A stretch of 64,000 nt of DNA. It comes from an uncultured bacterium. Its GTDB lineage: Bacteria > Vulcanimicrobiota > CADAWZ01. The translations under genes and the position numbers were made by a program. The notes below the pieces were generated by a model that saw nothing but the letters and a program-made list of their open reading frames with translations, was not told where the DNA came from and searched no databases. Location: contig CASEKF010000019.1 in the NCBI GenBank assembly GCA_949288455.1, positions 5,940-69,939 on the forward strand, given 5' to 3'. Shown here in pieces: positions 2,989 through 37,384 of the stretch. The first letter of the stretch is position 1. Each line of letters opens with the position of its first letter.

Positions 2989-3915
2989 TTAAGAAGCGGC
3001 TCCGGCTATCTGATTATATATTTTGGTAACTCCTACGTGCCAATTCTGATCAGTGGCCCATCCGGCTTTATTTACGGCGCTTGTCTGTTCCGCGACCGAA
3101 GCTGAAGGGGAACATCCCGCTTTATCTCTCAATTTTGCGAAAGTTTGAGCTCCTTTCTTAATCTGGTTCTCAACTCCGCTAAACGTAGGATTTCTAGTAG
3201 CGTTATTAGGATCGCTGTCATAAGCTCCTACTCCAAGCATACCGTTAACTCCTATTCCGGTCTTTCCCCATTGAGTTTCTTGACCGGCAATAGCTAAAAG
3301 AATGAATGGATCTACGTTGTATTCCTTTCCATATTTAACCATCATAGCTCCCGCACCCTGTCCTGCCGCAGGAGAACCCTTCTGACCTAAATACTCGTCT
3401 ATAAACTGGGCTTTGGCTTGATCGTCTCCGGTAAGAGGAGCCGAAGAAGCGGCTCCGGTTCCCGAGCTCTCCGAAACCGGCGAAGAACCGCCTGATCCGC
3501 TTATGGGCGAAGAACCGCCGGGAACGCCATAAGAACCCGCGCTTCCCGTTCCAGTATTAGAAGCCATAACCTGCTGCAGCATTTTAAACATTTCTACGAG
3601 AAGCTGCATCATCTGCTGCATGTTTTCGTCTGAAACCTGACCGCCGAACTGGCTCGCAGGATTAGCGAAAAGAGTATTAAAACCGGGAACGTTTCCTAAA
3701 CCAAGAGAAGAAAGATCTCCCCCTTTAGAAGATAAAAGATTGGAAGCCTGAGCGTAAGGATCTTTTATATCTCCGGAGAAAAGCGAAGAATCTAAACCAA
3801 AGCTAAAATTAGAAGAAATATTGCCTATAGCTCCGGAGCCAGGCAAAGAAATATTTTGAGAAAATCCAACGGATATTCCGGCGGAAATTTGGGGCGTATT
3901 ATTGCCGATCTTCAT
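2989..3915 (-). CDS. Gly/Ser-rich N-terminal module plus C-terminal lysozyme-fold glucosaminidase (GH73-like) peptidoglycan hydrolase
   Basis: C-terminal YNVDPFILLAIAGQETQWG (catalytic Glu helix) and WATDQNW (YATD-like motif). No Sec signal peptide. RBS AGGAGG. Confidence 0.75.
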   Translation of the reverse strand: MKIGNNTPQISAGISVGFSQNISLPGSGAIGNISSNFSFGLDSSLFSGDIKDPYAQASNLLSSKGGDLSSLGLGNVPGFNTLFANPASQFGGQVSDENMQQMMQLLVEMFKMLQQVMASNTGTGSAGSYGVPGGSSPISGSGGSSPVSESSGTGAASSAPLTGDDQAKAQFIDEYLGQKGSPAAGQGAGAMMVKYGKEYNVDPFILLAIAGQETQWGKTGIGVNGMLGVGAYDSDPNNATRNPTFSGVENQIKKGAQTFAKLRDKAGCSPSASVAEQTSAVNKAGWATDQNWHVGVTKIYNQIAGAAS

Positions 3916-4063
3916 TAATAAAATTCCTCCTAAATTTTTGTCTCGTCTTTTATTTTGCTTATACTCCCAAACAAAAGACCCTAAATTTTTACGTTAAGAT
4001 CCCATATACAATAAATAAACGTTTAAGTGAGACAATAGCTAAATATTAAATTTATCTCACATT

Positions 4064-4129
4064 TATATTATATATGCGATAAAGATAAATAAACAAAAAC
4101 TATTTGTAAATTTTTTTAATTTTTTGTAA
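4064..4129 (-). promoter_or_regulatory. putative promoter with direct-repeat activator box TTACA-N15-TTACA and -10 TATAAT
   Basis: Plus-strand TGTAA at 4105-4109 and 4125-4129, ATTATA at 4067-4072. The same architecture occurs upstream of the paralog (37385-37451). Confidence 0.55.
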
Positions 4130-4155
4130 AAAACTTTACAAACAATCTCAAACCT

Positions 4156-5988
4156 CTACATTTTAGCGGTATACTTTTCAAGAAGTTTTATAGAGTTCTT
4201 AACGTAAGTTTCGGTTCTCAAAGCAGATAAAGATCTCTGACTCATTAAAGCCAAATCGTAAATTTCCCAAATTACCAGATTTATATCTTCGACAGGCTCC
4301 GAAAGTCCCGAAAGAGATTTCTTTAAATTTTGAATTACGGAACTGGACGCATTTATAACCAGAGTATGCTCGTTTAACGTTCCAAGAGCGTCATTTTTCC
4401 CAAACATGGCAAACATGTCGCTCATTCTCCTGGATTGCTCGTTTAAAAGAACTACGGCCGGAACGTCCCCCGCATTTAAATATTTCACTTCAATATTTAA
4501 ACCGGGAATATCCAATACTTTTTTAAATAAATCTTGAATAGTTTCCGAAAAGGTCTTGTTAGTTTTCGGATCGACTATTCCCGATTCTCCGTTTTCATTT
4601 ATCGAGGAGTCGGTAAGTTCAGAATCGACTCTCAAAAATTTAATTTCTTTGTACTTGCTCTCCAAGAAAGGAATAAAATGAACGTCTATCCAGGAATCGG
4701 CCAGTAAAACTTCGATTGATTGTTCCTTCAAAATATTGATATAAAAAGACTGAGTCTTATCATCCGAAGCGTAGTAAACTTTTTCCTTGCCTTTTACGAA
4801 GTCTTCGAAAACTACAAAATTTCCGGAGAAAAGCTTAAAAACAAGAGAAGATTTCATCGCTTCAAAAAACTTATCGTCTTCCATCATGCCGACTTTTATA
4901 AAAGGATTAATATCGTCCCAATAATCTTCATATTTTTTTCTGTCCGATTTAAACAAGCCCGAAAGCTCGTCTGAAACTTTCCTGGTTATATGAGCCGTAA
5001 GCTTTTTCATAATAGGATCCTGCTGAAGATAACTTCTGGAAACGTTCAGCGGCATATCCGGACAATCTATTACGCCTCTTAAATTCATTAAAAAAGGAGG
5101 AATTAAATCTTTTAAATTATCGCTGACGTAAACCGAATTATAATAAAATTTGATCTTACCTTTAGACGGATCTAATTCATGCGTCAATTTTGGAAAATAT
5201 AAAATGCCTTTTGCTCTAATAGGATAATCGGAATTTATATGTATCCAAAAAATAGGTTCTTGTTCAAACGGATATAAATATCTATAAAAATCAATATAAT
5301 CTTCGTCTTTAATCTCGTTAGGACGTTCCATCCACAAAGGTTTACGTTCGTTCACTCTTCTGGAATTCAGAAAAATAGGAACAGGAATAAAAGCGCAGTA
5401 AGTTTCAAGAATCCTACTTATCTTATATTCGTCCAAATATTCCGATTCGTTATCGGATACGCGCAATATAACGTCCGTTCCGCGCTTTGACCGACTTCCC
5501 TCCGATAATTCATAATCCGGAGAACCTCCGCATTTCCAATGAGCCGCCTTAGCTCCGTCCAAATAAGACAAAGAATCTATTTCCACATAATCAGAAATAA
5601 TAAACGAACTGTAAAAGCCCAATCCAAAATGGCCTATTATCTGACTGCTTTCGTCGTCGCTTTTATATTTGCTAAGAAAATCGTTAGCTCCGGAAAACGC
5701 TACCTCGCTTATATATTTTTTTATCTCTTCGGCAGTCATTCCAATGCCGTTATCAGAGAAAGTAAGAGTCTTCTTTTCCCTATCTATAGCGACATGAATT
5801 TCATATTGTTCTTCCTCTTCGGTTTTAAACTCTCCCAAACTTTTCAAACGCTTAATTTTATTTATCGCGTCAAGTCCGTTAGTTATAAGTTCTCTTACAA
5901 AAATATCCTTTTCGGAATAAAGCCATTTTTTTATTAAAGGAAATAAATTTTCCATTTGTACCGATACGGCGCCTTTTTCCACTGCCAT
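4156..5988 (-). CDS. htpG: molecular chaperone HtpG (Hsp90)
   Basis: LYSEKDIFVRELITN, DNGIGMT, IGHFGLGFYS, PLNVSRSYLQ; ATG at 5988 after AGGAGG. Confidence 0.97.
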   Translation of the reverse strand: MAVEKGAVSVQMENLFPLIKKWLYSEKDIFVRELITNGLDAINKIKRLKSLGEFKTEEEEQYEIHVAIDREKKTLTFSDNGIGMTAEEIKKYISEVAFSGANDFLSKYKSDDESSQIIGHFGLGFYSSFIISDYVEIDSLSYLDGAKAAHWKCGGSPDYELSEGSRSKRGTDVILRVSDNESEYLDEYKISRILETYCAFIPVPIFLNSRRVNERKPLWMERPNEIKDEDYIDFYRYLYPFEQEPIFWIHINSDYPIRAKGILYFPKLTHELDPSKGKIKFYYNSVYVSDNLKDLIPPFLMNLRGVIDCPDMPLNVSRSYLQQDPIMKKLTAHITRKVSDELSGLFKSDRKKYEDYWDDINPFIKVGMMEDDKFFEAMKSSLVFKLFSGNFVVFEDFVKGKEKVYYASDDKTQSFYINILKEQSIEVLLADSWIDVHFIPFLESKYKEIKFLRVDSELTDSSINENGESGIVDPKTNKTFSETIQDLFKKVLDIPGLNIEVKYLNAGDVPAVVLLNEQSRRMSDMFAMFGKNDALGTLNEHTLVINASSSVIQNLKKSLSGLSEPVEDINLVIWEIYDLALMSQRSLSALRTETYVKNSIKLLEKYTAKM

Positions 5989-6108
5989 TTCAGCCTCCTT
6001 TATCAATAAGCGATATGTTTAGACGGCAGTATTATAATAAAAAAGCCCGAAATTATCAAGATAAAACGAAATAAAGACACTTAAGCAAAATATTTACGGA
6101 CAAATTCA

Positions 6109-6138
6109 TTGTCATCTGGATATGTAATATGCTATAAT
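6109..6138 (+). promoter_or_regulatory. sigma70-type promoter
   Basis: TTGTCA (6109-6114)-N18-TATAAT (6133-6138) with extended TG, upstream of the 6288 gene. Confidence 0.55.
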
Positions 6139-6287
6139 AAAAACGTATATATAATTCGCAAGAAATATGAACATAGCGACAAAATCTAAGTTTGAAATTA
6201 AAATATTCTACGACTTTAAACGCAACGCCTAACAATTACGCGTTTTGCTAACGGACAACAATAAAAATATTGAGGAGTTACACGCTA

Positions 6288-7169
6288 ATGAACGCAATAT
6301 CAAACGTACCTCAGGCATATATTCCCACAAATACGGCAAACATCGGGCAAACTCCGGAAACAAGCGTAAAAATTGGAAAAACGGAAGAAGCCCCTTCCGT
6401 CGTATCCGAAGATAAACTTGACGGCATAGATTTCTCGTCTCAGCCTTCCAAAAGCAAAGAAACTCGCGAAACTGCGCAGACTTCGTCAATTCAGAACTCT
6501 GATCAAATATCCGGCCAAACGAAAAAACTCTCTTGCGATTCCTTATCCACAGCCGGAAAAGCGGCGGCATCCTGTATAACCGGAACGGCCGGAGCCGTAG
6601 TCGGAGAAGCTATGGAATCTCTGAAAGACTATCAGGAAGAAATTGAAAAAGGATATCATCTGCCGGAAAAATTTATATGCGGTTATTATGACAGAAGAAT
6701 ATTCCCATATCTTGACAGACCTAATTACTCAAAATCCGACGAATATATGTATAGAGGAATGTACATAACGGTAGACGAGCTCGCCAATATTTTGAGAAAC
6801 GGATTCGAAACAAAATTCAATACTTGGTCTGCCGTAGGAGGCAAAGGCATATATTTAACTTCGAGCATACATGAAGCCGACGATTATATATTCCAATCCG
6901 TAGACTTTAAAAAGAAAAACGCTCTTGGCGTAGTGTTCAAATTACATCCCGGAGATTACGCTAAATTAGTCGAAGATCCTAAATATAATTCGACTAATAC
7001 AATATATAAATCAGACGCCGATGTGCCTCCGGACAAAATAGCGGACATTTATCTTAGAGGAGAATACGGTCTTGAAAGCCTAGGCTCAATTATAGAAAAA
7101 GCGAAAAACGGAGAAATCAAAGACAATTCTAAATGGACAAGTCAGTTTGACTCGTACATGATGAGATAA
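6288..7169 (+). CDS. putative ADP-ribosyltransferase-fold protein with disordered N-terminus
   Basis: YMYRGM (Arg strand), GKGIYLTSSIHEADDY (aromatic-x-T/S-S motif), GVVFKL and VPPDKI in the order typical of ART folds; N-terminal ~110 aa rich in S/T/Q. ATG 6288 after GAGGAG. Confidence 0.55.
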   Translation: MNAISNVPQAYIPTNTANIGQTPETSVKIGKTEEAPSVVSEDKLDGIDFSSQPSKSKETRETAQTSSIQNSDQISGQTKKLSCDSLSTAGKAAASCITGTAGAVVGEAMESLKDYQEEIEKGYHLPEKFICGYYDRRIFPYLDRPNYSKSDEYMYRGMYITVDELANILRNGFETKFNTWSAVGGKGIYLTSSIHEADDYIFQSVDFKKKNALGVVFKLHPGDYAKLVEDPKYNSTNTIYKSDADVPPDKIADIYLRGEYGLESLGSIIEKAKNGEIKDNSKWTSQFDSYMMR

Positions 7170-7228
7170 CGTAAAATTATTAATACTTGTTAACGCTTGA
7201 GAGTCGCTTCTTAATTTGGCAAACCGCT

Positions 7229-7291
7229 AGACTCATTATAAATCGAACTCGCTCCTAAAAAAACGGAGCGAGTTCGATTTATAATGAGTCT
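7229..7291. terminator. perfect 27-bp inverted repeat between convergent genes (probable bidirectional terminator)
   Basis: AGACTCATTATAAATCGAACTCGCTCC (7229-7255), 9-nt loop, exact reverse complement at 7265-7291. Confidence 0.7.
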
Positions 7292-7335
7292 GAATGACCT
7301 AAATTCATAAATAGTTAAATACGGCATCAAAAAAA

Positions 7336-7596
7336 TTAAGAAAATTTACGTCCTAAAAAGAAACCTCCGATAGCTCCTATGGCAGTTCCCAAATTAAAAT
7401 TAAAACAAAATCCTATCGTCAGCGAAAAAAAATACAAATCTATAACGGCGGGAGGATTGAGACCTATATTAAGCTTTGCGGCGATCAACGGGAAAAAAGA
7501 TCCCAAAGATTCCGCAATTAGAGAACCGGCCAAAGTTCCGGTAACTATGAACATTGCCATAATAAACGCGCCTGCGTTATTTGAATCTTTTGCCAT
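7336..7596 (-). CDS. DUF4321-like small membrane protein
   Basis: 86 aa, hydrophobic; IDLYFFSLTIGFCFNFNLGTAIG pattern matches DUF4321. Confidence 0.7.
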   Translation of the reverse strand: MAKDSNNAGAFIMAMFIVTGTLAGSLIAESLGSFFPLIAAKLNIGLNPPAVIDLYFFSLTIGFCFNFNLGTAIGAIGGFFLGRKFS

Positions 7597-7708
7597 TTAC
7601 GTATTGACCCACCTTACATAAATTTAAAAACGAACAAATCGCTGAGCTTAAGACGACTAAAAAAAACAAAAGCCAAACGTTTAATCAAAAACGTTATCAT
7701 AATCAAAT

Positions 7709-9586
7709 TTAATAACCCATCTTTCTTATGTCTTCCAAAAAATAACCGGTCTGCCTCAAAACCTGCATATCGCCGTCTATGTCTCTCCCGGACGACAGCT
7801 TATCAAGAATATCGTTCAAAGTAAACTCAAGCCGTTTAATTCCGGATTCAAAATTAGCCGCGCGTTCCCGAATGTCAGGAGAATTTAACAATGTCCCTGC
7901 CTTAGACTTATAGTCGCGTTTAACCTGCAGTATTAAATCTCTGTATTTTTTAAATTCCGCGATAAGATCGTTGCGAGCCAGGCTGCCTAACGTATATTGA
8001 GAAAAAGCGTTAAACAGCAATTCGAGTCTTGCGGGCAACGGATCTTGAGATAAAAACTCTTCATGCTCGGAGTTATAAGAAAGAGTCTTGGGTATAACGG
8101 CTCCGCACGAAGGACAAAGCCGCTCTCCCGTAGGACATATCTGTCCGCATCCGGGACATATAGAACGAGAAGACTTTGTAAGAGGAGAAATTCCCAAGTA
8201 AATTTCAATAAGCCTGGGAAGAGAAGCTTCTATGTCTCTCATACCAACGATAAGATGAGATTTATCGGAATCTTCCAAAAACGACATCAAATGATCTACT
8301 CCGGTCTTTTGAAGCTCAAGAAGCTCATAAGCCTCCATAGAAAGATGATTTCTCCCTGCCTTATCTCTAAATTGATAAAGAAGCTCCTGATGCCTTAAAG
8401 CAAAATCTTCAAGCTTGGTAGAGAAATATTCAAGCACGACCGAACCGGATAAATACCGGCCTATAACGTCCTTCAATTCCTCAATATACGGAGTCTTTGC
8501 GACTTTATTAAATTCGTCGGAAAACGCTTTTGAAAGTTTCGTTACGGACTCGTTAGCTTTCTCGAATTCAGAACATAAACGCTTGACGTCGACGTCGGAT
8601 AAGGCTGCTATTTGTTTGTAATCCCCTTTATAAATATTTTTCCAATATTTTTTAAAGTTCTCGACGTCTTCATATACTTCTAAAAAAGTATCTCTGACAA
8701 AAGGCAAATAATGGCTCTTTGAAACATAGTCGACTAAATTTCCGTAAGTTTTAACAAGAGCATCCAGTTTGTCGGACTCCGACTTTAAAGCGTTAGCCGA
8801 CAAAACTCCCTTTTTAGATGCCGCGAGCAATCTGCAATATTCGTCGACTAAAGGTATTTTAGAATATTCGCAATTTTTCGCCGAAAAAGCGTCCATAAGC
8901 CTTAAAACGGCATAAAAAGCCGGAGAAGCAAATTTCAAAAACCTAATGCCGTCTACCAAAGAAACATAATCATTTTCAGATAAAAACACATATAAAGCTC
9001 CAACGCCTTTTTTTAAATCTGAAAGCAATTTTTCCGCGGTTTTAATAATTTTGACCTGTTTTGGATAAAGAGCTCGAAAACCGGAAATATTTTTCCCCGA
9101 TAATTCTACGAACGAAGCTAAAGCCGGGACTAATACGGCAAAACTGGAAATTTCAATTTTACGCTTCGCGACTTTATAAGACGCCTTAATGATATAATTT
9201 ATTATTGGAACCGGAGATTCTATTCTTTCAGAACGCTTATATAACTCGCTTACCGACTCGGAAAGACGCATTATATATTTTTCGATAGAATAAATCACAG
9301 GATTTACTTCTACAAATCTACTTCTATTAATAACGCTCTCAAGATCCGAAAAAGCGCACTTTAAATCCTTGAAATCCTGGGAGATAAATCGTATTAAAGC
9401 TTCTATTTTTTCGTCGTCGTCAAAAAATACGGAAAGAGCCTTAAAAGTTTTCTCAAAATCAGAAATATAACTCCGGCTTTCGTCGATAAGCTTTTTCAAC
9501 TCGTCGACGCTATCTAGATCTCCCATCGCTACAGATTTGCCAAGATCTACCAAAGCTGCTATCTTAGGGGAAAAAATACCTGCCAT
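7709..9586 (-). CDS. hypothetical all-helical repeat protein with a zinc ribbon
   Basis: 625 aa, amphipathic helical repeats of about 115 aa; CPGCGQICPTGERLCPSCG zinc ribbon near residue 480. Confidence 0.7.
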   Translation of the reverse strand: MAGIFSPKIAALVDLGKSVAMGDLDSVDELKKLIDESRSYISDFEKTFKALSVFFDDDEKIEALIRFISQDFKDLKCAFSDLESVINRSRFVEVNPVIYSIEKYIMRLSESVSELYKRSERIESPVPIINYIIKASYKVAKRKIEISSFAVLVPALASFVELSGKNISGFRALYPKQVKIIKTAEKLLSDLKKGVGALYVFLSENDYVSLVDGIRFLKFASPAFYAVLRLMDAFSAKNCEYSKIPLVDEYCRLLAASKKGVLSANALKSESDKLDALVKTYGNLVDYVSKSHYLPFVRDTFLEVYEDVENFKKYWKNIYKGDYKQIAALSDVDVKRLCSEFEKANESVTKLSKAFSDEFNKVAKTPYIEELKDVIGRYLSGSVVLEYFSTKLEDFALRHQELLYQFRDKAGRNHLSMEAYELLELQKTGVDHLMSFLEDSDKSHLIVGMRDIEASLPRLIEIYLGISPLTKSSRSICPGCGQICPTGERLCPSCGAVIPKTLSYNSEHEEFLSQDPLPARLELLFNAFSQYTLGSLARNDLIAEFKKYRDLILQVKRDYKSKAGTLLNSPDIRERAANFESGIKRLEFTLNDILDKLSSGRDIDGDMQVLRQTGYFLEDIRKMGY

Positions 9587-9733
9587 AAAAACTCCTTAAA
9601 AATAGCGATAATCAAATATCAAAAACCCGCGATATTCTATTTTTTATATCAGCGGCAATACTCAACGTTATCTGCCAAAACTCTTGCGACAGCGCATGCC
9701 AAAATTTTCAAATAATATTCTCTTCTAAAGGAT

Positions 9734-9771
9734 GCGCCGTATATTCCTAGATTCAATAGGAATTACGGCGC
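9734..9771. terminator. stem-loop downstream of the 9866 gene
   Basis: GCGCCGTA-T-ATTCCTA / TAGGAAT-TACGGCGC hairpin; no clear U-tract. Confidence 0.45.
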
Positions 9772-9865
9772 CTAATCATAAATCTAAATATTCTAAACGC
9801 ATATAACCAATATATTTCAAAAAGATAGGCAAAGCGTTATGTTTTAGTCTAAAATTATCAATGCC

Positions 9866-11104
9866 TTAAAAAGCGTAACCGTACATTATTTTAGAAATAA
9901 GTTTTTCAGGATGAAGAGCCGAATCCTGCGAAGACGGATTAACGTTTATCGAAATTGCCGAGGAATATGGAGAGGAATTAATAACTCCCAACATATCTTC
10001 AGATAAAAATGAATTATATCCGACTTCTTTGTTATCTCTCTCCAAAATGCCTAAAGTCTCGGGTTCCCGAGTAGAATCCAGAGCTAATATATCTAAATTC
10101 AAAGGCGATTTTCCATCGAAACCGGCTAAGCCTAAAGCTGAACCGGAAGAATTATAAGAAGCGAGAGTCTCGCTGATACCGTTCCAGGCCGTCTCATATT
10201 TTTTCTCGCTGCCTTCGATAACGGGAACAGACGCCATACGAGTCATATCGAAGGAATCATCCCTAGCGGCTATAGCCTTAGCCGACAAAGCGTCGGGCAA
10301 TTCCATGGCAAGAGCCGAAGAAGGAGCCGCGGAAGCGGCGTCCCAAGCGGCGAGAGTCTCTAAGGGCAAATTTGAAAAGGCTACGCCGTTTTCAGCGGAA
10401 GTTTCATTAGAAGGAATTTCTACCGCGGCTATGGCTCTTTGCCTGGAAAGATCTAAAGTTTCGCCGGGAACAAGACCTAAAGCGGCTTCGGTTACGTTAG
10501 AAGCTACGGCAAAATCGCCAAGAAGCTCAGAAGGCAAAGTCTCCGCTATCTCAAGCCCCATAGGAGGCAAAGATACGGCTACGGTTTCTTTTGAATCCTG
10601 ATTAGGAATTACGGGATTTAAAGCTATGCCTTCAGCTAACTCAGGCATATCGATTTTAGGAATCTGAATAGTATTTAAAGCTAAGCCTTCTTCCCTTTCA
10701 GGGAAAGGTATATGGGGAATCTGAATAGTATTTACCGCCGCCAGTTGAGAAGAGTTTAATTCTTCGGCCTTAGGAATCTGAATTACGTTAAAACCTATAG
10801 CGGCAGACTCAGGCCGCGCGGCAAGAATCTGAGAACCTGCCAGGCCGGAATCTAAAGAAGCGATAGCCTCGCTTCCCAATCCCAAATATCCGCCAAGACT
10901 TCCCGACATAATGACGTCAAGCGATAAATTCTGTCCCGGCATATTGACTTCGGGCTGAGCGGCAGGGGCTCCTAAAGCCTTATCCAACATAAGATTTAAC
11001 GAAGCGGTTCCGGCTGCGGAAGATTGGCGTTCAATCTGAGAAACATGCCCAATTGAAGGCGAAGAAGAAGAATAATTTATGCCTAAATTACGGATTTCAT
11101 TCAT
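9866..11104 (-). CDS. hypothetical acidic low-complexity protein with short internal repeats
   Basis: 412 aa, Ala/Ser/Leu/Glu-rich; repeated N[TV]IQIP units; RBS GGGAGG; no recognisable domain. Confidence 0.7.
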   Translation of the reverse strand: MNEIRNLGINYSSSSPSIGHVSQIERQSSAAGTASLNLMLDKALGAPAAQPEVNMPGQNLSLDVIMSGSLGGYLGLGSEAIASLDSGLAGSQILAARPESAAIGFNVIQIPKAEELNSSQLAAVNTIQIPHIPFPEREEGLALNTIQIPKIDMPELAEGIALNPVIPNQDSKETVAVSLPPMGLEIAETLPSELLGDFAVASNVTEAALGLVPGETLDLSRQRAIAAVEIPSNETSAENGVAFSNLPLETLAAWDAASAAPSSALAMELPDALSAKAIAARDDSFDMTRMASVPVIEGSEKKYETAWNGISETLASYNSSGSALGLAGFDGKSPLNLDILALDSTREPETLGILERDNKEVGYNSFLSEDMLGVINSSPYSSAISINVNPSSQDSALHPEKLISKIMYGYAF

Positions 11105-11238
11105 AGCAAAATCCTCCCGTATATATTTTCTTATTTATAATTTTATCATAAAACAAATTCAAGAATATTTCAAATTTGTTAAATTTTAAAAAAAAATATC
11201 AATATATAAAAACCGAAAACGCTGACTTTTATAATAAA

Positions 11239-11589: not shown

Positions 11590-11595
11590 TATTTC

Positions 11596-11829
11596 TTATT
11601 CTGAAATCTGTTTTTTTGCGTCGGCAAGACCTTCGAGAATTTCGTCTATCATATCTATGGGAAACCTTACGCCCTTCTTAGTAGGCAAAGATTCTTCGGA
11701 ATCCTCGTTTGAATAATACTCCCTGACATCAATATAAGCGTTGTCCTTCCAATAAGCTATTTTAATCTTTATAGTTTTGCCATATCCCCTGTCTATAGAT
11801 TTTACTTCAATATCCTCAGGCATCGTCAA
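11596..11829 (-). CDS. PC4/p15 (YdbC-like) ssDNA-binding protein
   Basis: YIDVREYY and PTKKGVRF are PC4-family hallmarks; 77 aa. Confidence 0.85.
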   Translation of the reverse strand: MTMPEDIEVKSIDRGYGKTIKIKIAYWKDNAYIDVREYYSNEDSEESLPTKKGVRFPIDMIDEILEGLADAKKQISE

Positions 11830-28882: not shown

Positions 28883-30012
28883 CTTTTCTTCACCGGGGCG
28901 AGAAAATTCATTATAAAAGTCTTTTTAATATCTACGGCCGCATGCGGACAAAGTTCATGACAGCAAAAACATCTGATGCATTTAGAATGATCGCAATTGG
29001 GTTTTCCGTCGTTCATGTTTATAGCTCCCGCAGGACAGATCTTAGCGCAATAGCCGCATGACTTGCATCTGTCCGAAAAATGAACTTTAGGCCTTATTAA
29101 CTTCTCCGCTATATTCGTCCATATACCGCTTACGAATCGAAAATTCATAGACGAAGGAAGTTTGACGTCCGTCAAACGCGATTTCACGGGATCCAAGCCC
29201 ACGCATTCGACTTTGTCTAAGTCTACTAAATTCCTTTTTGCGGCATGAGCTAAAACCGGGATTTTTAAAGGATCTATTCCCAATAGCCTTGCCGCCGCGA
29301 CGTCAAGACAAAAAGCGTTTTCCGAAGCCAAAACGAACCCCATCGGCCTCACTCTTCCGGAAGTGGGCCCGTCTCCATCCATTCCCACTATGCCGTCCAT
29401 AATGGAAAGACCGGGACTTGAAGCCAGAAAGATATCTATAAGAGCGTCGGCAAAATGGCCGTAATCGGGCATTCTGAAATGATATTCCATCTTCTTTAAT
29501 CCCGGAACGGAACCGAACATATTTTTTACGGCTCCCGTAAAAACCATTTGGCAATGAGTCTTCATCTTAGGAAGATTCACGATAAAATCTACGTCTTTAA
29601 GAGGCTTTAATATCTCCGGTTTTTTAAGAAATAAGGCTTTCGGATTGTCCGCCTCTATAGTAGATACGTCGTAATTCAAAGAAACGTTTTCCCGCTCCAG
29701 AGGAAGCAGACCGCAAGTTTTATAAATTCCTTTGAGAACTTCGGGTTTATAAATATTTCCGGGACTATCTATAATCACGACGGACGCTCCGGCTTCAGTC
29801 AACAAATCTGCTACGGCCGCGACGAAAGAAGGATGAGTCGTAGCGGCGGCGTCAGGTTTTTTAGCCATAACCAAATTGACTTTTAAAGCCGCTTTCATAC
29901 CTTTTTTTATAAATTTGCTTAAGCCTCCCAGCAAATTAAGAGCCTCTTCTACGCTCTTTTTTGAATTGTCATAAGAATCGGACCTGACTATGGCCGTTTT
30001 CATATTGTTCAT
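28879..30012 (-). CDS. DUF362 domain protein with C-terminal 2x[4Fe-4S] ferredoxin
   Basis: AATTHP, NLPKMKTH, GAVKNMFG, GMDGDGP; CKSCGYCAKICP and CIRCFCCHELCP. Confidence 0.88.
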   Translation of the reverse strand: MNNMKTAIVRSDSYDNSKKSVEEALNLLGGLSKFIKKGMKAALKVNLVMAKKPDAAATTHPSFVAAVADLLTEAGASVVIIDSPGNIYKPEVLKGIYKTCGLLPLERENVSLNYDVSTIEADNPKALFLKKPEILKPLKDVDFIVNLPKMKTHCQMVFTGAVKNMFGSVPGLKKMEYHFRMPDYGHFADALIDIFLASSPGLSIMDGIVGMDGDGPTSGRVRPMGFVLASENAFCLDVAAARLLGIDPLKIPVLAHAAKRNLVDLDKVECVGLDPVKSRLTDVKLPSSMNFRFVSGIWTNIAEKLIRPKVHFSDRCKSCGYCAKICPAGAINMNDGKPNCDHSKCIRCFCCHELCPHAAVDIKKTFIMNFLAPVKKR

Positions 30013-30082
30013 AGGCTCCTCATACTTAAAAAATATCTTCGAACCGTCAAAATGTTACTATAAAACGCTGCGAATAACGCGC

Positions 30083-31753
30083 TTAAAAAAGACCTGAAAT
30101 CAAGCCGGAGTCGTCTATATCAATATTTTCAGCCGCAGGATTCGCCGATAATCCGGGCATAGTCATAATATTGCCGGCCAAAGCTACTATAAATCCGGCT
30201 CCGGCAGAGACTCTAAGTTCTCTTACGTTAATAAAGAAATCTTTAGGAACGCCATATAGAGAAGGGTTGTCAGAAAAGCTGTACTGCGTTTTCGCGACGC
30301 ATATAGGCAGTTTATCGAACCCGTACCCGCTCAGGCTTTCCATCTGTTTCTTAGCCGCGGGCGTAAATTTAGCTCCGCAGCCGCCGTAAATTTTTACAGC
30401 TATATTATCAAGTTTTTCAGAAATTGAAGAATTAAGATCATATGCGAATTCCAAGCTCGATTCAGTTTCGCAAAGTTCAACAACCGCTTTCGCCAGCTCT
30501 ATTCCTCCGGAAGATCCTTCTTTCCATACGTTCGACAGAGCCGCCCTGATTCCCGTTGATTCGCACTTAGCTAACAACGCTTCAATTTCAGCTTCGGTAT
30601 CTGAAGGGAAAACGTTGATCGCTACGATGCATGGAAGTTTAAAAACCTCGCGTATATTTGACACATGACGCTCTAAATTACAAAAGCCTCTGTCTAAAGC
30701 GTCTAAATTTTCTAAATTCAGCTCGGTTTTCTTGACCCCTCCATGATATTTTAAAGCCCTCGCCGTAGCTACTACTACGGCGCACGAAGGCTTAAGTCCG
30801 GAAGTTCTGCACTTTATGTCGAAAAATTTTTCCGCTCCCAAATCGGCTCCGAAGCCGGCTTCCGTAACAGCGTAATCGGCAATTCTCAAAGCCGTTTCAG
30901 TCGCGGCCAAAGAATTGCAGCCATGAGCTATATTCGCAAAAGGTCCGCCATGGATTAGAACCGGAGTATGTTCTAACGTCTGCGCCAGATTAGGTTTCAA
31001 AGCGTCTTTTAAAAGCGCGGCCATAGCCCCCTGCGCTTTGAGCTCTCCGGCTCTTACCGGTTCGCCGGAATAGGTTCTGGCGGGTATTATGTCAGATAAA
31101 CGCTTTTTCAGTTCTCCGATATCTTTAGACAAGCATAAAATAGCCATTACTTCCGAAGCCACGGTAATATCAAAACCGTCTTCCCTTGGAACTCCGTCAG
31201 TCTTTCCGCCCAAACCCGATACGATATTTCTAAGCTGCCTGTCGTTAATATCAAGACAACGTCTCCAGGATATCTGCCTTGGATCTATGTTCAAAAGATT
31301 GCCATGATATATATGGGCGTCCAACATAGCCGCAAGAAGATTGTTCGCTGCGCCTACCGCGTGTATATCTCCCGTGAAATGAAGATTAATGTCTTCCATC
31401 GGCATAACCTGAGCCATACCTCCGCCGGCAGCTCCTCCCTTTAATCCGAATACCGGACCGAGAGAAGGTTCCCTCAAAGCCGCGGCGGCTTTCGCCCCTA
31501 TCTTTGAGAGAGAATCGGCCAATCCTACGGTGGTAGTAGTTTTGCCTTCTCCCGCAGGCGTCGGAGTTATGGCCGTCACAAGAATTAATTTTCCCCTTTT
31601 AGCGGGCTCGGAGAGAAAAGATAAATTGATCTTAGCTTTATCACGACCGCATATTTCCAAATATTTTGCCGGAATCGAGGCTTTTTCCGCTATTTCAGCA
31701 ATATTTTTAGGACGCGCCGAACGAGCTATTTCTATATCGCTTTTAAATTTCAT
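30083..31753 (-). CDS. fhs: formate--tetrahydrofolate ligase
   Basis: [43 protein letters not shown]. Confidence 0.97.
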
Positions 31754-31826
31754 AAACTTTACTCCTTATTTTATTAAAAAATCGGGTAGGAGACGGAAAT
31801 TTTCTATAGTTAAAAATTCGGACTTT

Positions 31827-31857
31827 AAAAAAGGAGGCGATATTTGTTCGCCTCCTT
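31827..31857 (-). terminator. intrinsic terminator after ygeW
   Basis: Minus strand AAGGAGGCGA-ACAAATA-TCGCCTCCTT followed by further Ts. Confidence 0.75.
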
Positions 31858-31873
31858 CAAGTATTTTTTGAAA

Positions 31874-33073
31874 TTATTTTATTCTAGGCTTAGACTCATT
31901 TAAAAGAGCGCCGAAAGTATCGGCGGGATCCGCTTTCTTGGCTAAGAATATCATAGCCGCTATTATATAAGGCTTAAAGCTGGCTTGTTTATAAAGGGGA
32001 ATCCTATAACGATCAAAGACGGAAGCAGCCACTTCTCCGGCTTTGCAAGAAACTCCGGTTATATCGGCAGGCAGACAGTGAAGATAAAGAGCTTCTCCAT
32101 TTTTAGTCTTTTTCATCATTTCTTCGGTGCATTCCCAATTTTTAAACTTAGCGTTTTGTTCCAGGAGTTCCTTTTCAAGTTTCTTTATGCCTTCTATATC
32201 TGATTCTACGTAAAGCTTGGATCTTTTTTCCATGGCTTTAAACGGAGCCCAGCTTTTAGGATATACTATATCGGCTCCTTCAAACGCTTCTTCCATAGAA
32301 TTAGTTTTAAGGAATTTGCACCCTAAAAGCTCGGCGTTTTTCCTTCCTATCTTCTCGACCTCAGGCATTATCTCGTAACCTTCCGGATGCGCCAAAGTCA
32401 CGTCCATGCCGAATCGGGTCATTAACCCTATTACTCCCTGAGGAACGGACAACGGCTTTCCGTAAGACGGAGAATAAGCCCAGGTCATAGCCACTTTCTT
32501 ACCTCTAAGTTTTTCGACTCCCCCAAAATGATGGATGACATGAAGCATATCCGCCATAATCTGAGTGGGATGGTCTATATCGCACTGCAAATCGACTAAA
32601 ACCGGCCTCTGTTCGAGAACTCCGTCTCTATAACCTTCCTCGACGGATTTAGCCACGCTTCTCATATATTTATTTCCTTCGCCTATATACATATCGTCTC
32701 TTATGCCGATAACGTCGGCCATAAACGATATCATATTAGCCGTCTCTCTTACCGTTTCTCCATGCGCGATCTGAGATCTGCTTTCGTCAAGATCCTGAAC
32801 TTCGATGCCTAACATATTGCAGGCCGACGCAAAACTGAATCTTGTTCTTGTCGAATTGTCGCGGAAAAGAGAAATCCCAAGACCGGAATCAAAAATTCTG
32901 GTCGAAATATTAGCTTCTCTCAAACCTCGCAAGATATCGGCGGCAAGAAACGTCGCCATAATTTCATCGTCTGTCTTATGCCAGGTTTCAAAAAAATCGT
33001 TTAGATACATATTTTTATAATCATAATCCGTAAGACGGCTTATTAATTTGGCGATTTTTACTTTATCCATCAT
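31874..33073 (-). CDS. ygeW: knotted carbamoyltransferase YgeW
   Basis: FRDNSTRTRFSF, LQCDIDHPTQ, WAYSPSYGKPLSVPQG, YLHCLPADI. Confidence 0.93.
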   Translation of the reverse strand: MMDKVKIAKLISRLTDYDYKNMYLNDFFETWHKTDDEIMATFLAADILRGLREANISTRIFDSGLGISLFRDNSTRTRFSFASACNMLGIEVQDLDESRSQIAHGETVRETANMISFMADVIGIRDDMYIGEGNKYMRSVAKSVEEGYRDGVLEQRPVLVDLQCDIDHPTQIMADMLHVIHHFGGVEKLRGKKVAMTWAYSPSYGKPLSVPQGVIGLMTRFGMDVTLAHPEGYEIMPEVEKIGRKNAELLGCKFLKTNSMEEAFEGADIVYPKSWAPFKAMEKRSKLYVESDIEGIKKLEKELLEQNAKFKNWECTEEMMKKTKNGEALYLHCLPADITGVSCKAGEVAASVFDRYRIPLYKQASFKPYIIAAMIFLAKKADPADTFGALLNESKPRIK

Positions 33074-33157
33074 AAAACTCCTAATTGATTTAATAAAAAC
33101 GTCGATTAATTTAAAATTAAAAATAATAGTACGATAAAAGCGTATAAAGGACTTAAA

Positions 33158-34372
33158 CTATTTCTTCAAATTTTTATAATATATTTCCGGCAAAGCCGCA
33201 TATAAAGCGCAACAACGCACCAGATCGGCCTTCCAGGTCTTCTCGTTAGGGGCGTGAGCTTCTTTCTCTTTTCCCGGGCCAAATCCGATAACCGGAATAT
33301 TAAACATACCCATAATAGAAACTCCGTTCGTAGAAAAAGTCCATTTGTCTACGCAAGGATCGGCGTCAAACAGCGAAGAATACGACTCGACGGCAGAACG
33401 ACAAAGGATATGGTCTTCAGGGATAGTCCAAGTCGGGAAATAACAATCCGTAGGATATTGCAATCCGGTCCATGAAGGTCTGTCATATGTATACATAGAC
33501 ACCTCGACTCTATCTCTTATGGCGTTTACGGAAGGAAGTTCCCTTATCTGTCCCAACGCAAGTTCTGCGTCTTCTCCCGCAGTAAGCCTGCGATCGATCG
33601 ATATCGTGCAACCGTCGGCCACCGCGCAGCGGGAAGGCGAAGAATGGAATATCTGAGAAACGGTAAGCGAACCTTTTCCAAGGAAAGGATCCGTTTTCAA
33701 TCTCAAATGAAGATTTTCCAAATCATGCAAAATACGCGCCATATCGAAAATAGCGTTCTGTCCTCTCTCGGGAGCGCTGCCATGAGAAGATACGCCCTTT
33801 ACTTCCACTTTAATCTCCATGCGTCCCCTATGGCCTCTGTAAATTTTGCCGTCAGTAGGCTCGGTTGAAACGACGAAATCAGGCTTTAGCCCATGTTCTT
33901 TAATCAAATACTGCCAACACAGCCCGTCGCAATCCTCTTCCTGAACAGTTCCTACCATAGCCACAGTTATATCGTCGGGAACTAAATTAAGTTCTTTCAT
34001 AATTTTTCCGGCGTAAACCATCGAAGCCATTCCGCCCTTTTGATCCGAAGTTCCTCTTCCTCCTATTTCCGCGTCGGTTTCATATCCTTCGTACGGATCA
34101 AACTCCCAATTTTCTCTTAGACCTATTCCTACGGTATCGATATGAGCGTCAAAAGCTATCAAACGCGCTCCTTTTCCAATATAGCCTATAACGTTACCCA
34201 TTTTGTCAATTTCCACTCTGTCAAAGCCGACTTTTTCCATTTCCCTTTTTATTCTTAAAATAACTTGCTCTTCTTCGCAGCTTTCAGATGGAATTTTAAC
34301 TATATCCCTTAAAAAACAAACCATATCCTTCTCATATTTTTGAGACAGGTCATTAATTCCGCGGAAATCCAT
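33158..34372 (-). CDS. ygeY: YgeY-family M20 metallohydrolase
   Basis: [43 protein letters not shown]; adjacent to ygeW. Confidence 0.92.
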
Positions 34373-34547
34373 CCCGAGGCACCTCCTGAAAAAACGTCGT
34401 TCAAAAATAAAAGCGCCGTAACAACGCCACTCTTCATAGACAATTCTTTAAAGTTTATTTTTATCCTGTTTTATAAAAAAACAAAATACCAAGCCAAAGA
34501 AAAAGGAAAAAATCAAAGTATCAAAAATAACCCAAGAAAGAGCAAAT

Positions 34548-35360
34548 ATGAAAGGGAAACTTATGGACATAAACAAAAAACTGGCTCAATTTTTAGAAAG
34601 CGGAAGAGAATTCGCACTAGCGACGGTAATAGAGGCGACCGGAAGCTCTCCGGCAAGAAGCGGCTTTAAAATGATCGTCTCCAACGAAGAATTCCTAGGA
34701 ACCGTAGGAGGCGGAACTCTAGAATATAAAACGGTAGAAGCGGCTAGAGAAACTTTAAAAAGAAAAAAAAATTCTTTGATTGCATTTGATCTCAAAAATA
34801 TAGGAATGACATGCGGCGGACAAGCTAAAATATTTTTCGAGTATATTCAAGGAGAAAAAAGAATGTACATTTTCGGAGGAGGGCATATATGCCAGGCCTT
34901 TTCGCCGATCGCCGCGTCTTTAGGATTTAAAATCACCGTTCTAGACAACAGATCGGACGTCGCGAATAAAGAAAAACAGCCCTTCGCACACGAAATCGTT
35001 TGCGAAGAATTTGAATCAGGAATAGATAAAATGAAATTTGGAGACAACTCGTTCGCGCTTATAGCGACTAACAAACATGCGTACGACGGAGCGGTGATAA
35101 AAAAGTTATGCGAACAAGAAGAAAAATTTAGATACATAGCCATGATAGGCTCGAAAACAAAAGTGAAAACATGCTTGGAAGAACTTATCGATATGGGAAT
35201 AAAAATCGAAACTCTAAAAAAAATATACTCTCCGGCCGGCTTGAAGATAGGAGGCGATTCTCCGGCTGAAATAGCCGTAGCCATAGCCGCGGAAGTTATA
35301 GCTTTCGAACATGGAAAAGACGTTCCTAATATGAAAACTAATCTCGTCGGAGAAACGTAA
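34548..35360 (+). CDS. XdhC/CoxF-family xanthine dehydrogenase accessory protein
   Basis: ALATVIEATGSSPA, GTVGGG, GMTCGG, IFGGGH, YIAMIGS, SPAEIAVAIAAE; start may be the ATG at 34563. Confidence 0.9.
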   Translation: MKGKLMDINKKLAQFLESGREFALATVIEATGSSPARSGFKMIVSNEEFLGTVGGGTLEYKTVEAARETLKRKKNSLIAFDLKNIGMTCGGQAKIFFEYIQGEKRMYIFGGGHICQAFSPIAASLGFKITVLDNRSDVANKEKQPFAHEIVCEEFESGIDKMKFGDNSFALIATNKHAYDGAVIKKLCEQEEKFRYIAMIGSKTKVKTCLEELIDMGIKIETLKKIYSPAGLKIGGDSPAEIAVAIAAEVIAFEHGKDVPNMKTNLVGET

Positions 35361-35502
35361 AAAACTAACTAACGATATAGAAAGTCCGTTCAGAACGTAA
35401 GTTGATCGAAAATGCAAAAGCCTCGAAAACGGTCTCGCAAATCGATCGCGATCGATCGCGAGCATTAACAGAGGAAAAGGAATAAAGAACGCTCGATCTT
35501 GA

Positions 35503-35575
35503 CTGTAGAGATTGACCGTAAAATTAAACGGGTATAAAATTCATCTCCGTTTAATTTTACGGTCAATCTCTACAG
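35503..35575. terminator. perfect 29-bp inverted repeat between convergent genes
   Basis: CTGTAGAGATTGACCGTAAAATTAAACGG (35503-35531), 15-nt loop, exact reverse complement at 35547-35575. Confidence 0.7.
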
Positions 35576-35603
35576 CCGGCGCAATTTATCGCGCTCAAGA
35601 ATC

Positions 35604-36041
35604 TCAAATAGCGGCCCGAACCTTATTGATTTTATCCGTAACGGTAAGAAATAGACTTACGCACTCTCCCATATTTTCAATATTGGGATCTTTAGAGTAT
35701 GTTTTTACGGACTCCAGCAAAACGGTGACTAAATCTAAAGTAGTAAGAATAATTTTAAGTTTATCGGCGTTTTCCGGAGCAGATTTCAAAGCTTCCCTCA
35801 ATTCGTCTTTTTTCGCGTTATTGCTTTCAGAAAGAGCGGCATAATATTTATCAAGAATTTCCAAAGGCTGAGTTTTATTATGAACGGCCTCCAAAGCTCC
35901 CAGCAGAGAATCAAATCCGGGATTTTCCGGATCGACGGGAGCGCTGGTTAAAGAAACGTCTCCATAAATAGATTTTATAGCTTGTTCCTGCCGAAGTTCT
36001 TTCACGGCCTTTTCTGCCGCTTTATTAAAATCCTCGTTCAT
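35604..36041 (-). CDS. hypothetical helical protein; apparent single-unit homolog of the repeat in 7709-9586
   Basis: 145 aa ORF with AAGGA RBS; gapless by-eye alignment to repeat 2 of the 625-aa protein. Confidence 0.7.
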   Translation of the reverse strand: MNEDFNKAAEKAVKELRQEQAIKSIYGDVSLTSAPVDPENPGFDSLLGALEAVHNKTQPLEILDKYYAALSESNNAKKDELREALKSAPENADKLKIILTTLDLVTVLLESVKTYSKDPNIENMGECVSLFLTVTDKINKVRAAI

Positions 36042-36227
36042 ATGAGCTTATAGTCCTTTCTTAATATAATTACGCCATAAACAATCTTTCAAAATTTCTC
36101 AATCAAAAACGTCTTAATATACGTTAAGGCTACCGGCATATCATAACTTAAACTCCAATGTTAAACGCTTAAGCCAAAAAACGACGTTTTACTAATCTTC
36201 TCTTTTAAAAAATATTTCTCCTTCTAC

Positions 36228-36275
36228 AAAAACTCCGCCGCATTCCGAACCATAGTCGGAATACGACGGAGAAAA
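36228..36275 (-). terminator. intrinsic terminator of the 36310 gene
   Basis: Minus strand CTCCGTCGTATTCCGA-CTATGGT-TCGGAATGCGGCGGAG-TTTTT. Confidence 0.75.
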
Positions 36276-36309
36276 ATAACTTTTACGCTAACGAACGCAT
36301 TAAAACTAA

Positions 36310-37269
36310 TTAATCTTTATGATAGAAGACGCCGCTTCTCGCGCTTCCGGTATCTCTGGTAATTTCCTGAATGCTGTCTCCATTATTGTTGGAACCTATC
36401 AAAGTAGGAGGATTACCGGCTTTTTCGACAATTTCAGTATGACCGCGGCTATCGTTAATCCAAACGTCTCCCGGTTGAGCCTGAGAAGCTGGGACTTGTC
36501 TGAAACCTTCGGCTATCAATCCTTTTTCGAAAGCTTTAACGTTAATATAATGGTTTTTAAGCTTCCCGGTAGATTCCAGAAGCGAACTTACAAAATCGAC
36601 GCAGTTATTGTTTCTACCGCCTGCGGCAGTGAAATGAGGAAGTTCTCCCTTAAGACTGGCGGAATCCCTGCCAAGATATTTCTGAGCAAGAGCTACGGCC
36701 TCATTATTGGAAGTAGAAGGAGAAGTCCCGCTCATAGCCCCGGAGGATCCAACGGGATAACTGCCGCTTCCGCCGCCATATCCGCCGCCGGAAGCTCCGA
36801 TGGGAAGTCCGCCGCCATATCCGCCGCCGGAAGCTCCGATAGGCAATCCTCCGGCCATACCCGTCTCTCCCATCATCTGCTGCTGCATCATCATCTGCAA
36901 CATCATCATCATCTGCATCATCATCATAAGCATCAACATCATCTGATTATTCTGAGCTTGCCCTCCAAACATACTTCCGGCAGGCGAAACCGCTCCGCCA
37001 AATCCCGGAACCATCCCTAACCCCATGGAATTTAAGGGATTCATTCCGGCATTGCCAAACATAGACGAAAGGTTTCCAATAGAACTATAAGGATCGTTTT
37101 TATCAGGAGAAAGATTAGATACGTCTCCGCCTAAATTAATGCTAAAACTTAAATTTATGCCTACGTTAGGAGTCATAGCTCCCATAGACGTCAATCCGCC
37201 AAAAGAATTCAAAGGACTAACCCCGCCGGGAAAACCAAAGGGACTCATTCCGCCAATTCCGAAATTCAT
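36310..37269 (-). CDS. Gly/Ser/Met-rich N-terminal module plus C-terminal NlpC/P60-CHAP-like Cys-His peptidoglycan hydrolase
   Basis: AVALAQKYLG, NCVDFVS (catalytic Cys), AQPGDV, GHTEIV (catalytic His). No Sec signal. Start ATG 37269 or TTG 37275 after AGGAGG. Confidence 0.78.
   Translation of the reverse strand: MNFGIGGMSPFGFPGGVSPLNSFGGLTSMGAMTPNVGINLSFSINLGGDVSNLSPDKNDPYSSIGNLSSMFGNAGMNPLNSMGLGMVPGFGGAVSPAGSMFGGQAQNNQMMLMLMMMMQMMMMLQMMMQQQMMGETGMAGGLPIGASGGGYGGGLPIGASGGGYGGGSGSYPVGSSGAMSGTSPSTSNNEAVALAQKYLGRDSASLKGELPHFTAAGGRNNNCVDFVSSLLESTGKLKNHYINVKAFEKGLIAEGFRQVPASQAQPGDVWINDSRGHTEIVEKAGNPPTLIGSNNNGDSIQEITRDTGSARSGVFYHKD
36769..36840. repeat. 39-bp-period tandem duplication encoding GGLPIGASGGGYG twice
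   Basis: 33 identical bp at 36769-36801 and 36808-36840. Confidence 0.9.
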
Positions 37270-37384
37270 TAACAACTATCCTCCTTAAAAATATTTTAAT
37301 AATTAGTTCAAAATTTATAACAATTTAGTTTAATTTTAAAACGATAAAACTTTAAAATTAATATATGTCAAAAACTTTCTTGTC

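Follow-up and report, generated by a model that had tools for sequence, protein, structure and literature searches.

The window analysed here is a 64,000-nucleotide stretch (contig CASEKF010000019.1, positions 5,940 to 69,939, of GenBank assembly GCA_949288455.1) from an uncultured bacterium of the class Xenobia, phylum Eremiobacterota (WPS-2). Apart from its possible source, sequencing runs of several studies, with bird, chicken or gut metagenome as their label, contain this stretch. Two of its genes, named gene A (2989..3915) and gene B (36310..37269), were compared; both lie on the minus strand, as do all of their features given below. Their products have in common, at the N-terminus, a module of about 100 residues, which is a real, portable, N-terminal unit with swapped catalytic tails. 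A first-pass annotation, made from the sequence alone, had not recognized the module as a named domain, and neither the Pfam nor the NCBIfam models matched it.

Gene A encodes 308 amino acids, starting from an ATG with AGGAGG 8 nt upstream, and is built of the module, a Gly/Ser linker and a GH73-type glucosaminidase domain. The module part (residues 1-120, 3556..3915) was delimited by the module alignments and the shuffle test described below, and its Met/Gln-rich segment (residues 99-117, 3565-3621) is probably helical, as judged by alignment to the predicted helix of gene B alone. The glucosaminidase (GH73-like) domain (residues 191-303, 3007..3345) passed the cut-off of Pfam family PF01832, Glucosaminidase (E 5.1e-8, 34.1 bits, cut-off 30.2). 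A match to an NCBIfam peptidoglycan hydrolase model (E 1e-8) stayed far under the cut-off of that model. The Glu of the motif A-G-Q-E-T-Q-W-G, a candidate catalytic residue by its place in a GH73-like motif, also stands in the sequences of P0018, P0023 and the L076 protein. A terminator-like hairpin (2908..2953) with a 20-pair stem, just 3 G-C pairs and a T-rich tail lies 3' of the gene.

Gene B encodes 319 amino acids, namely the module, a Gly-rich linker and a domain of predicted CHAP/NlpC-P60 fold. Its start is most likely the ATG at 37269, because AGGAGG is found 10 nt upstream, while the alternative TTG at 37275 follows AGGAGG by just 4 nt. A sigma-70-like promoter candidate 5' of the gene (37425..37452) is a consensus match alone (10/12 positions, extended TG). 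Two AlphaFold runs, one of the full protein with an alignment of 20 relatives and one of the module alone with 24 sequences, gave a module that is disordered apart from one Met/Gln-rich helix. Residues 1-104 (36958..37269) hold the conserved columns and were predicted to be disordered in both models (predicted local distance difference test, pLDDT, 35-57); their motifs are D-x-S-x-x-S-x-D-x-x-D, G-x-G-M-V-P-G-F and G-S-M-F-G-G. The predicted helix follows at residues 105-133 (36871..36957, pLDDT about 75-80) and was the only structure in the model of the module alone, there spanning residues 108-134 of a 135-residue query that began at the TTG. The DNA encoding it is ATG-rich and repetitive, and positions 36869-36944 were skipped when reads were mapped to the stretch. 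Behind a Gly-rich linker (residues 134-185, 36715..36870, pLDDT <50, no secondary structure), the C-terminal domain (residues 186-319, 36313..36714, pLDDT >90) is predicted to be a cysteine peptidase/amidase with a papain-like CHAP/NlpC-P60 fold and a Cys-His pair.

By sequence, gene B reached 21.4 bits with Pfam CHAP, under the cut-off of 26, and its orthologue in the relative G003, a genome of the same family and another genus, passed the cut-offs (CHAP 28.7, Amidase_6 27.7). A Foldseek search of the modelled domain against the PDB placed the CHAP structures 4olk, 4csh and 7cfl on top (E 1.4e-4 for 4olk to 6e-4, probability 1.00). These are phage lysins and a clostridial autolysin; type VI amidase effectors ranked lower. 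Cys223, His277 and Glu279 were invariant in the 20 relatives. The first-pass annotation had called the two C-termini unrelated, one GH73-like and the other a Cys-His peptidase, and had suggested Foldseek on the AlphaFold models as a check. The distinction holds, for gene A by Pfam and for gene B by AlphaFold and Foldseek, where the check placed CHAP domains first.

Homology of the two N-termini

The N-termini had been described as homologous in three gapless blocks. These blocks are present, and the identity counts given for them are exact (14/34, 14/28 and 7/19, the last in the Met/Gln helix). By BLASTP with composition adjustment, residues 32-96 of A align to residues 41-109 of B with 28/69 identities (E 5e-8). 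As the region is compositionally biased, the Met/Gln helix was removed before the comparison with shuffled sequences. The remaining local alignment score of 113 was equalled by 0 of 2000 composition-preserving shuffles of both sequences (mean 41.6, standard deviation 7.5, z 9.6), and all 6 pairs among the 4 copies found in this genome exceeded 500 of 500 shuffles. A loss of the similarity on shuffling, which the first-pass annotation had named as a refutation, thus did not occur. An artefact, in which A and B are alike merely through a common low-complexity composition, could draw on the strong bias of the region and on a weak match elsewhere in the genome, to contig C63, that covers a Met/Gln stretch only. 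Set against the shuffles without the helix, the composition-adjusted E-value and short motifs that stay in register across 24 sequences, this explanation retains practically no probability, and it was rejected on the shuffle test and the BLASTP result. The N-termini are thus similar by homology and not by composition.

The core of the module reads D-x-x-x-(F/I/L)-S-x-D-x-x-D, about 20 variable residues, and then G-x-G-M-V-P-G-F-G-G-x-C-x-x-x-G-S-M-F-G-G; P and G of M-V-P-G-F are invariant in the 24 modules. The Met/Gln helix comes after this core, and the module often ends with N-G-F-G. The Cys in G-F-G-G-S-C-N is a consensus residue of the family, and the modules of genes A and B are cysteine-free. 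Each module holds 12-23 Gly, and two copies contain 25-26 Met in 128-135 residues. Over the first 25 positions of the 24 modules, the share of Lys and Arg is 2.1%, and neither a basic n-region nor a hydrophobic core was detected in the modules by eye or by composition, in agreement with the earlier statement that A and B have no Sec signal. In 20 of 20 relatives the module starts no more than 55 residues into the longest open reading frame (ORF). A lookup of the module in a protein atlas gave best values of at most 0.78, which is chance level.

The composition of the helix bears on one possible function, self-insertion, which the first-pass annotation had also raised as membrane insertion. The Met-rich helix would then act as a membrane segment of weak hydrophobicity and anchor or translocate the enzyme in the style of signal-anchor-release endolysins or holin-like elements, without a dedicated machine. 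In gene B and in the copy on contig C28 the helix is indeed almost pure Met/Leu with few Gln. The helix of gene A and of one subfamily in G003, however, contains Glu, Lys and numerous Gln and is not hydrophobic, so that hydrophobicity is not the conserved property; moreover, about 100 residues precede the helix, unlike in signal-anchor sequences. We consider self-insertion very unlikely.

The module family in the genome

Both modules were searched against all 6116 ORFs of at least 50 aa in the assembly (2.13 Mb, 70 contigs, 98.9% complete, 39.5% G+C). The genome contains 4 family copies with 3 catalytic families on contigs C19, C28 and C36. Besides genes A and B, these are a CHAP-like close relative of gene B (C28:6777-7697, 306 aa) and a member with Peptidase_M15_4 (C36:45053-46024, 323 aa, 26.6 bits, cut-off 25). 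All 4 copies have strong ribosome-binding sites and, by eye, are single genes amid housekeeping genes; their neighbours include htpG, a subtilisin-like gene, a translation-factor-like gene and a large helicase-like gene. The subtilisin-like and other neighbours carry ordinary signal peptides (by eye), therefore Sec signals are normally used in this genome. In the 130-250 nt upstream of 24 family genes no flagellar-sigma motif was seen by eye; sigma-70-like boxes and strong AGGAGG sequences were found, and the likeness among some of the G003 upstream regions reflects paralogy.

The first-pass annotation had described genes A and B as monocistronic with their own terminators. Terminator scans bear this out, for gene B with a hairpin at 36233..36271 (16-pair stem, 9 G-C pairs, T run), but a neighbour of gene B that is kept across genera had been overlooked. 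This acidic ORF of 145 aa (35604..36041) lies downstream of gene B, and its homologue follows the gene B orthologue of G003 (48% identity, E 9e-34). It is a single-copy, helical-looking protein with a pI of 4.9 and no signal peptide by eye, and it belongs to no Pfam or NCBIfam family. It could be a candidate chaperone, immunity or accessory protein, and it makes gene B the only one of the 4 copies with a candidate immunity gene beside it. Gene B and the 145-aa ORF were also found on contigs from RNA libraries of 3 studies with at least 99% identity, and in one run the contig ends coincide with the gene ends. This is a weak hint of gene B transcription, with DNA carry-over possible; stretches of the gene B region outside such contigs carry no information.

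Two further proteins of this genome were noted. The protein behind the weak match on contig C63 (C63:19067-19708, L003:9068-9706, 213 aa) has a Met/Gln run, His-Gly-Pro repeats and C-terminal glycine zippers; it was not counted as a member, since the match is confined to the helix (E 0.005 to 7e-4). In the window, the plus-strand ORF at 6270-7169 (299 aa) adjoins htpG. Its Ser/Thr/Gln-rich N-terminus is probably disordered and has no signal peptide, and its C-terminal half shows, by eye only, ADP-ribosyltransferase-like motifs with no Pfam match. A jackhmmer search of this genome with its first 80 residues yielded no paralogue.

The family in relatives and databases

A profile of the 4 modules gave matches in 5 of 41 related genomes: 16 copies in G003, one in G004, one in G005 and three in G006 (same order), and none in 34 genomes of other orders. 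With a 24-row profile, 8 of 151 genomes across the phylum were matched; G013, G019, G024 and G093 were added with weak matches, and G004, which the 4-row profile had matched once and weakly (E 6.8e-7), was lost. The strict module is thus essentially confined to the Xenobia order, and looser versions occur elsewhere in the phylum.

Database searches were in line with this narrow distribution. Among 1.84 billion representative proteins, just 20 were found at E <=1e-3, and one of these (P0016), a repeat protein with 8 short matches, was dropped as false. A search of 5.8 billion proteins, which covered longer proteins only and scored 8000 candidates, led to 40 proteins. A scan of a genome collection with the 4-sequence module alignment gave no confirmed match, whereas full-length CHAP-type members did find relatives. 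Members were named in the databases as Candidatus Xenobiia, Eremiobacteraeota or Vulcanimicrobiota, and NCBI protein names for them mention the catalytic domain only or are hypothetical.

According to precomputed Pfam assignments, 26 of the 40 database members contain one of seven peptidoglycan-hydrolase families: CHAP in 5 (one also with NLPC_P60), SLT in 5, NLPC_P60 only in 4, Glucosaminidase in 4, VanY in 4, Peptidase_M15_4 in 3 and Amidase_5 in 1. The C-termini of the G003 copies are CHAP / Amidase_6 (3), NLPC_P60 (3), Peptidase_M15_4 (2), VanY (1) and SLT (1); 5 are without a Pfam match and 1 is cut by a contig end. By eye, the five Pfam-less tails include 3D/MltA-type-like, CHAP-like and glycine-zipper-rich tails, a coiled coil that ends in a short Gly-rich part, and a coiled coil with an HExxH domain. 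In one 390-aa member of G003 the full module is joined to a glycine-zipper tail that resembles the tail of the C63 protein. A profile search with a tabulation of the C-terminal domains had been suggested at first pass, and it produced many further members carrying other wall hydrolases. One relative of 494 aa combines the module, a gene-A-type glucosaminidase and a gene-B-type CHAP-like domain in one chain, with Pfam scores below the cut-offs. A distant member ends in a sub-threshold DUF1521 (21.7 versus 23.6 bits), a domain that is reported for the type III-secreted proteins NopE1 and NopE2 and their Vibrio relative.

Long members, in which a coiled coil of 150-250 residues separates the module from an M15, SLT, CHAP or HExxH enzyme, raise the main rival to a role in export, namely colicin- or pyocin-like bacteriocins. 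Here, the module would be an import domain docking to outer-membrane or periplasmic proteins of the target, the coiled coil a receptor-binding stalk and the C-terminus a warhead, with release by lysis or another route. The order of disordered module, coiled coil and warhead fits, as do the glycine-zipper-rich tails that are not hydrolases, copy numbers from 0 to 16 among related genomes, and the limitation of the strict module to one order, which is expected for a domain fitted to the import machinery of its targets. One G003 locus adds to this: a very acidic 69-aa ORF (L025:5031-5240), a possible immunity gene, follows the 675-aa HExxH-tailed member at a distance of 30 nt, and it is the sole arrangement that looks like a toxin-immunity pair. 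On the other hand, 3 of the 4 copies in our genome have no small neighbour fit for an immunity or lysis gene, the copies stand amid housekeeping genes and not on evident mobile elements, the short forms in the window have no receptor-binding stalk, and the pair of gene-B type and 145-aa ORF has been retained by two genera and looks vertically inherited. We regard bacteriocins as an unlikely explanation. If it were correct, the module would define a new family of bacteriocins, equipped with a set of lytic warheads, in Eremiobacterota of the gut.

The catalytic domain of the gene-B type is widespread in the phylum, where it is preceded by looser regions that are Gly/Met/Pro-rich and contain Met/Gln runs. 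In metagenome-assembled genomes (MAGs) labelled Myxococcota, a related domain instead follows SH3-like repeats or lipoprotein-type signals (by eye). These looser versions are relevant to a further possibility, that the module has no role in delivery and instead regulates or tethers the enzyme by autoinhibition, wall or membrane binding or self-association via the helix, the wall being reached otherwise or after lysis. A disordered module of extreme composition with a single helix would suit such a role, and the presence of Gly/Met/Gln-rich regions before the same CHAP-like domain in many MAGs of the phylum suggests that composition perhaps matters as much as sequence. This would, however, leave unexplained how at least 7 families of wall enzymes cross the inner membrane without a visible signal peptide, and motifs in register in 24 sequences exceed the needs of a compositional function. 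We judge it unlikely.

Several aspects are new here: the strict Xenobia module with the census of its cargo, the single chain in which the catalytic domain types of genes A and B both follow one module, the neighbour that gene B keeps across genera, and the paralogue evidence for the flagellar-type apparatus presented below. In the open full-text literature, which leaves subscription journals mostly uncovered, neither the module nor a flagellin-independent flagellar-type system in this phylum was found described.

Flagellar-type export genes

A check of the genome for flagellar or type III secretion machinery had been proposed with the original observation, and in the 98.9% complete assembly type III export genes of the flagellar type are indeed present and amount to an almost complete flagellar core. 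The flagellar-type clusters lie on contigs C5, C16 and C44. The genome has FlhA (C16:34704-36707), FlhB, FliF, FliG, FliH, a FliK-type protein, three proteins with a rod C-terminal domain, a 274-aa FlgE/F/G-like protein, a 97-aa Rod-binding (FlgJ N-type) protein and a FliA-like sigma factor; FliI, J, M, N, O, P and R were assigned by position and size alone. Flagellin_N, FlgI (P ring), FlgH (L ring) and FlgM were not found in the genome, nor were the type VI secretion (T6SS) sheath TssC or a phage-type sheath. Both secretins of the genome are part of pilus or type II secretion-like clusters (by eye). On contig C44, a 201-aa SLT lytic transglycosylase (C44:14692-15297, L080:1695-2297) is encoded between one gene resembling FliJ and one resembling FliK. 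No signal peptide is evident in it by eye, and its best NCBIfam match, far below the cut-off, is the flagellar-assembly enzyme BB0259.

The export gate protein was used to follow the apparatus through the phylum. Searches of the phylum sample detected FHIPEP, the FlhA family, in all 41 genomes and flagellin in 14 of them; for the Xenobia order, the numbers are 7 of 7 and 0 of 7. A maximum-likelihood tree of 41 full-length FlhA sequences (LG+G4, midpoint root, no outgroup) was calculated; it omits partial matches as well as several genomes, and two of its rows are very long-branched. One clade of 12 rows (support 100) comes, for 11 of 12, from flagellin-bearing genomes, and a second clade of 20 rows (support 85) contains the genome studied here. 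Ten genomes hold one FlhA of each clade. Given this coexistence, the apparatus is a separate paralogue and not merely a decaying flagellum, and from the sequences compared, two paralogous export systems of the flagellar type seem to exist in the phylum. Its only cultured representative is described as a Gram-negative diderm with thin peptidoglycan and type IV pili and without flagella or a flagellin gene (PMC9758169). Proteins with only the cytoplasmic domain of FlhA were also encountered: this genome encodes a soluble one of 468 aa between an SIS-domain gene and RNase PH (C30:10452-11435, L005:1210-2616). Such domain-only matches exist in most sampled genomes of the phylum, with more than 10 in genomes of 7-8 Mb, some within proteins of 800-1200 aa.

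A possible leader for flagellar-type export

We infer that the module directs export and that this flagellar-type apparatus is the route. The module is read as a delivery leader because the wall is where its cargoes act, a Sec-type signal is not visible, and it is always N-terminal, disordered and almost devoid of basic residues. The flagellar-type route is favoured because no other non-Sec machine was found, because machines of this kind accept unfolded N-termini and because wall hydrolases exported in this way are known. That the module is a non-Sec delivery leader, with the flagellar-type type III apparatus as its most likely route, is therefore our preferred reading, held tentatively and short of probable.

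In detail, the leader would stand in for a Sec signal peptide, with about 100 disordered, nearly charge-free Gly/Ser/Asn/Met residues and few linear motifs. It would be followed by the amphipathic Met/Gln-rich helix, the Gly-rich linker and an interchangeable extracytoplasmic cargo, usually a peptidoglycan hydrolase. The leader might be threaded unfolded through an apparatus of export gate, MS and C rings, ATPase complex, rod, FlgJ-type rod cap and FliK, and the enzyme would be freed at the wall as proposed by analogy with proteobacterial FlgJ and CwlQ of Bacillus subtilis. As no L ring, P ring or dedicated secretin was found, the cargo would be freed in the cell's own periplasm, and such periplasmic release suits wall remodelling better than warfare.

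FlgJ is a wall hydrolase exported by the flagellar type III route, and type III machines accept unfolded N-termini. For CwlQ, published work reports that it has no Sec or Tat signal, that its secretion depends on FliF and that the export information is in the N-terminal domain. HopP1 is described as a type III substrate with harpin features and, at its C-terminus, a lytic transglycosylase.

The link between the module and the flagellar-type route is nevertheless circumstantial, and several points weigh against it. The apparatus was the only non-Sec machine found in searches that did not cover type I and type IV secretion, Tad or holin routes. The transglycosylase encoded within the C44 cluster has no signal peptide and does not carry the module. 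No family copy (C19, C28, C36) is linked to the flagellar-type clusters (C5, C16, C44), and by eye the upstream regions of the family are sigma-70-like with no common flagellar-sigma motif. The apparatus does not predict the module, as it is found in 41 of 41 genomes and the strict module in 5 of 41 and 8 of 151, and G002, of the same family and 97% complete, yielded no copy at all; the family is dispensable in close relatives. Finally, an apparatus with no evident passage through the outer membrane fits badly with a weapon acting on other cells. Predicted complexes between the module and the FlhA and FlhB cytoplasmic domains (score 0.01, mark 0.32, controls not folded) speak neither for nor against binding.

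A wider version of the proposal appears doubtful to us. In it, the leader marks the substrates of a hitherto unrecognized, phylum-wide secretion machine, the flagellin-independent flagellar type III paralogue represented by the FlhA clade of this genome, which exports wall hydrolases and toxins and arose independently of the injectisome. Should the module prove to be an export signal, it would be a portable tag, recognizable by sequence, that marks a non-Sec route in a phylum with hardly any cultured members, and it would give a function to a flagellar-type apparatus kept without flagella. It would also make testable how type III machines gain non-flagellar cargo, and annotators could use it to spot secreted wall enzymes which are now labelled by their catalytic domain or as hypothetical.

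Comparison with known systems

Harpins were suggested as relatives by the first-pass annotation. Their Gly-rich, Met/Gln/Leu-rich helical segments resemble the module in composition, not by alignment, and the two-domain harpins HrpW and HopAK1 carry a pectate lyase. For HopP1, a Gly-rich helical region, a wall-degrading domain and type III secretion are reported. Harpin membership is unsupported: no harpin family was among the Pfam or NCBIfam matches up to E 1, and many modules have conserved cysteines, in which they differ from harpins. Further differences are a bird-gut host and a flagellar-type apparatus in place of a Hrp injectisome.

Trafficking domains of polymorphic toxins such as MIX and LXG provide a conserved N-terminal unit with exchangeable C-terminal enzymes. 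The module family is alike in its conserved module, exchangeable C-termini, multiple copies and a copy number that varies among relatives. It differs in that no T6SS sheath was found, the organism is a diderm, the module is disordered instead of folded and immunity genes are mostly missing. The analogy to polymorphic effectors drawn at first pass thus stands for the conserved N-terminus with swapped C-termini, but not for the neighbourhood, as 3 of 4 copies have no candidate immunity gene next to them. Pesticin and colicin M are colicin-like bacteriocins with wall-directed warheads. Shared with these are a disordered Gly-rich N-terminus with short motifs, a coiled-coil middle in the long members, a killing domain at the C-terminus and the absence of a signal peptide; in contrast, the family genes are chromosomal and scattered, lysis genes were not seen and immunity genes mostly not.

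Flagellar export genes kept without flagella have precedents in the basal bodies of Buchnera aphidicola and in Lysobacter enzymogenes OH11, for which protein export was proposed (PMC8109811, PMC7688988). The apparatus discussed here differs, as it is a distinct paralogue beside true flagellar genes in 10 sampled genomes of the phylum.

A close parallel to the proposed export leader is offered by FlgJ of beta- and gamma-proteobacteria and by CwlQ, in which an N-terminal non-Sec export or rod-binding part is joined to a C-terminal peptidoglycan hydrolase. FlgJ even carries Pfam Glucosaminidase, the family of gene A. The module is dissimilar to the Rod-binding domain, which in this genome sits on the separate 97-aa protein. 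Unlike FlgJ and CwlQ, the module family is multi-copy, is encoded outside the flagellar clusters and combines one N-terminal unit with at least 7 hydrolase families and with non-hydrolase tails.

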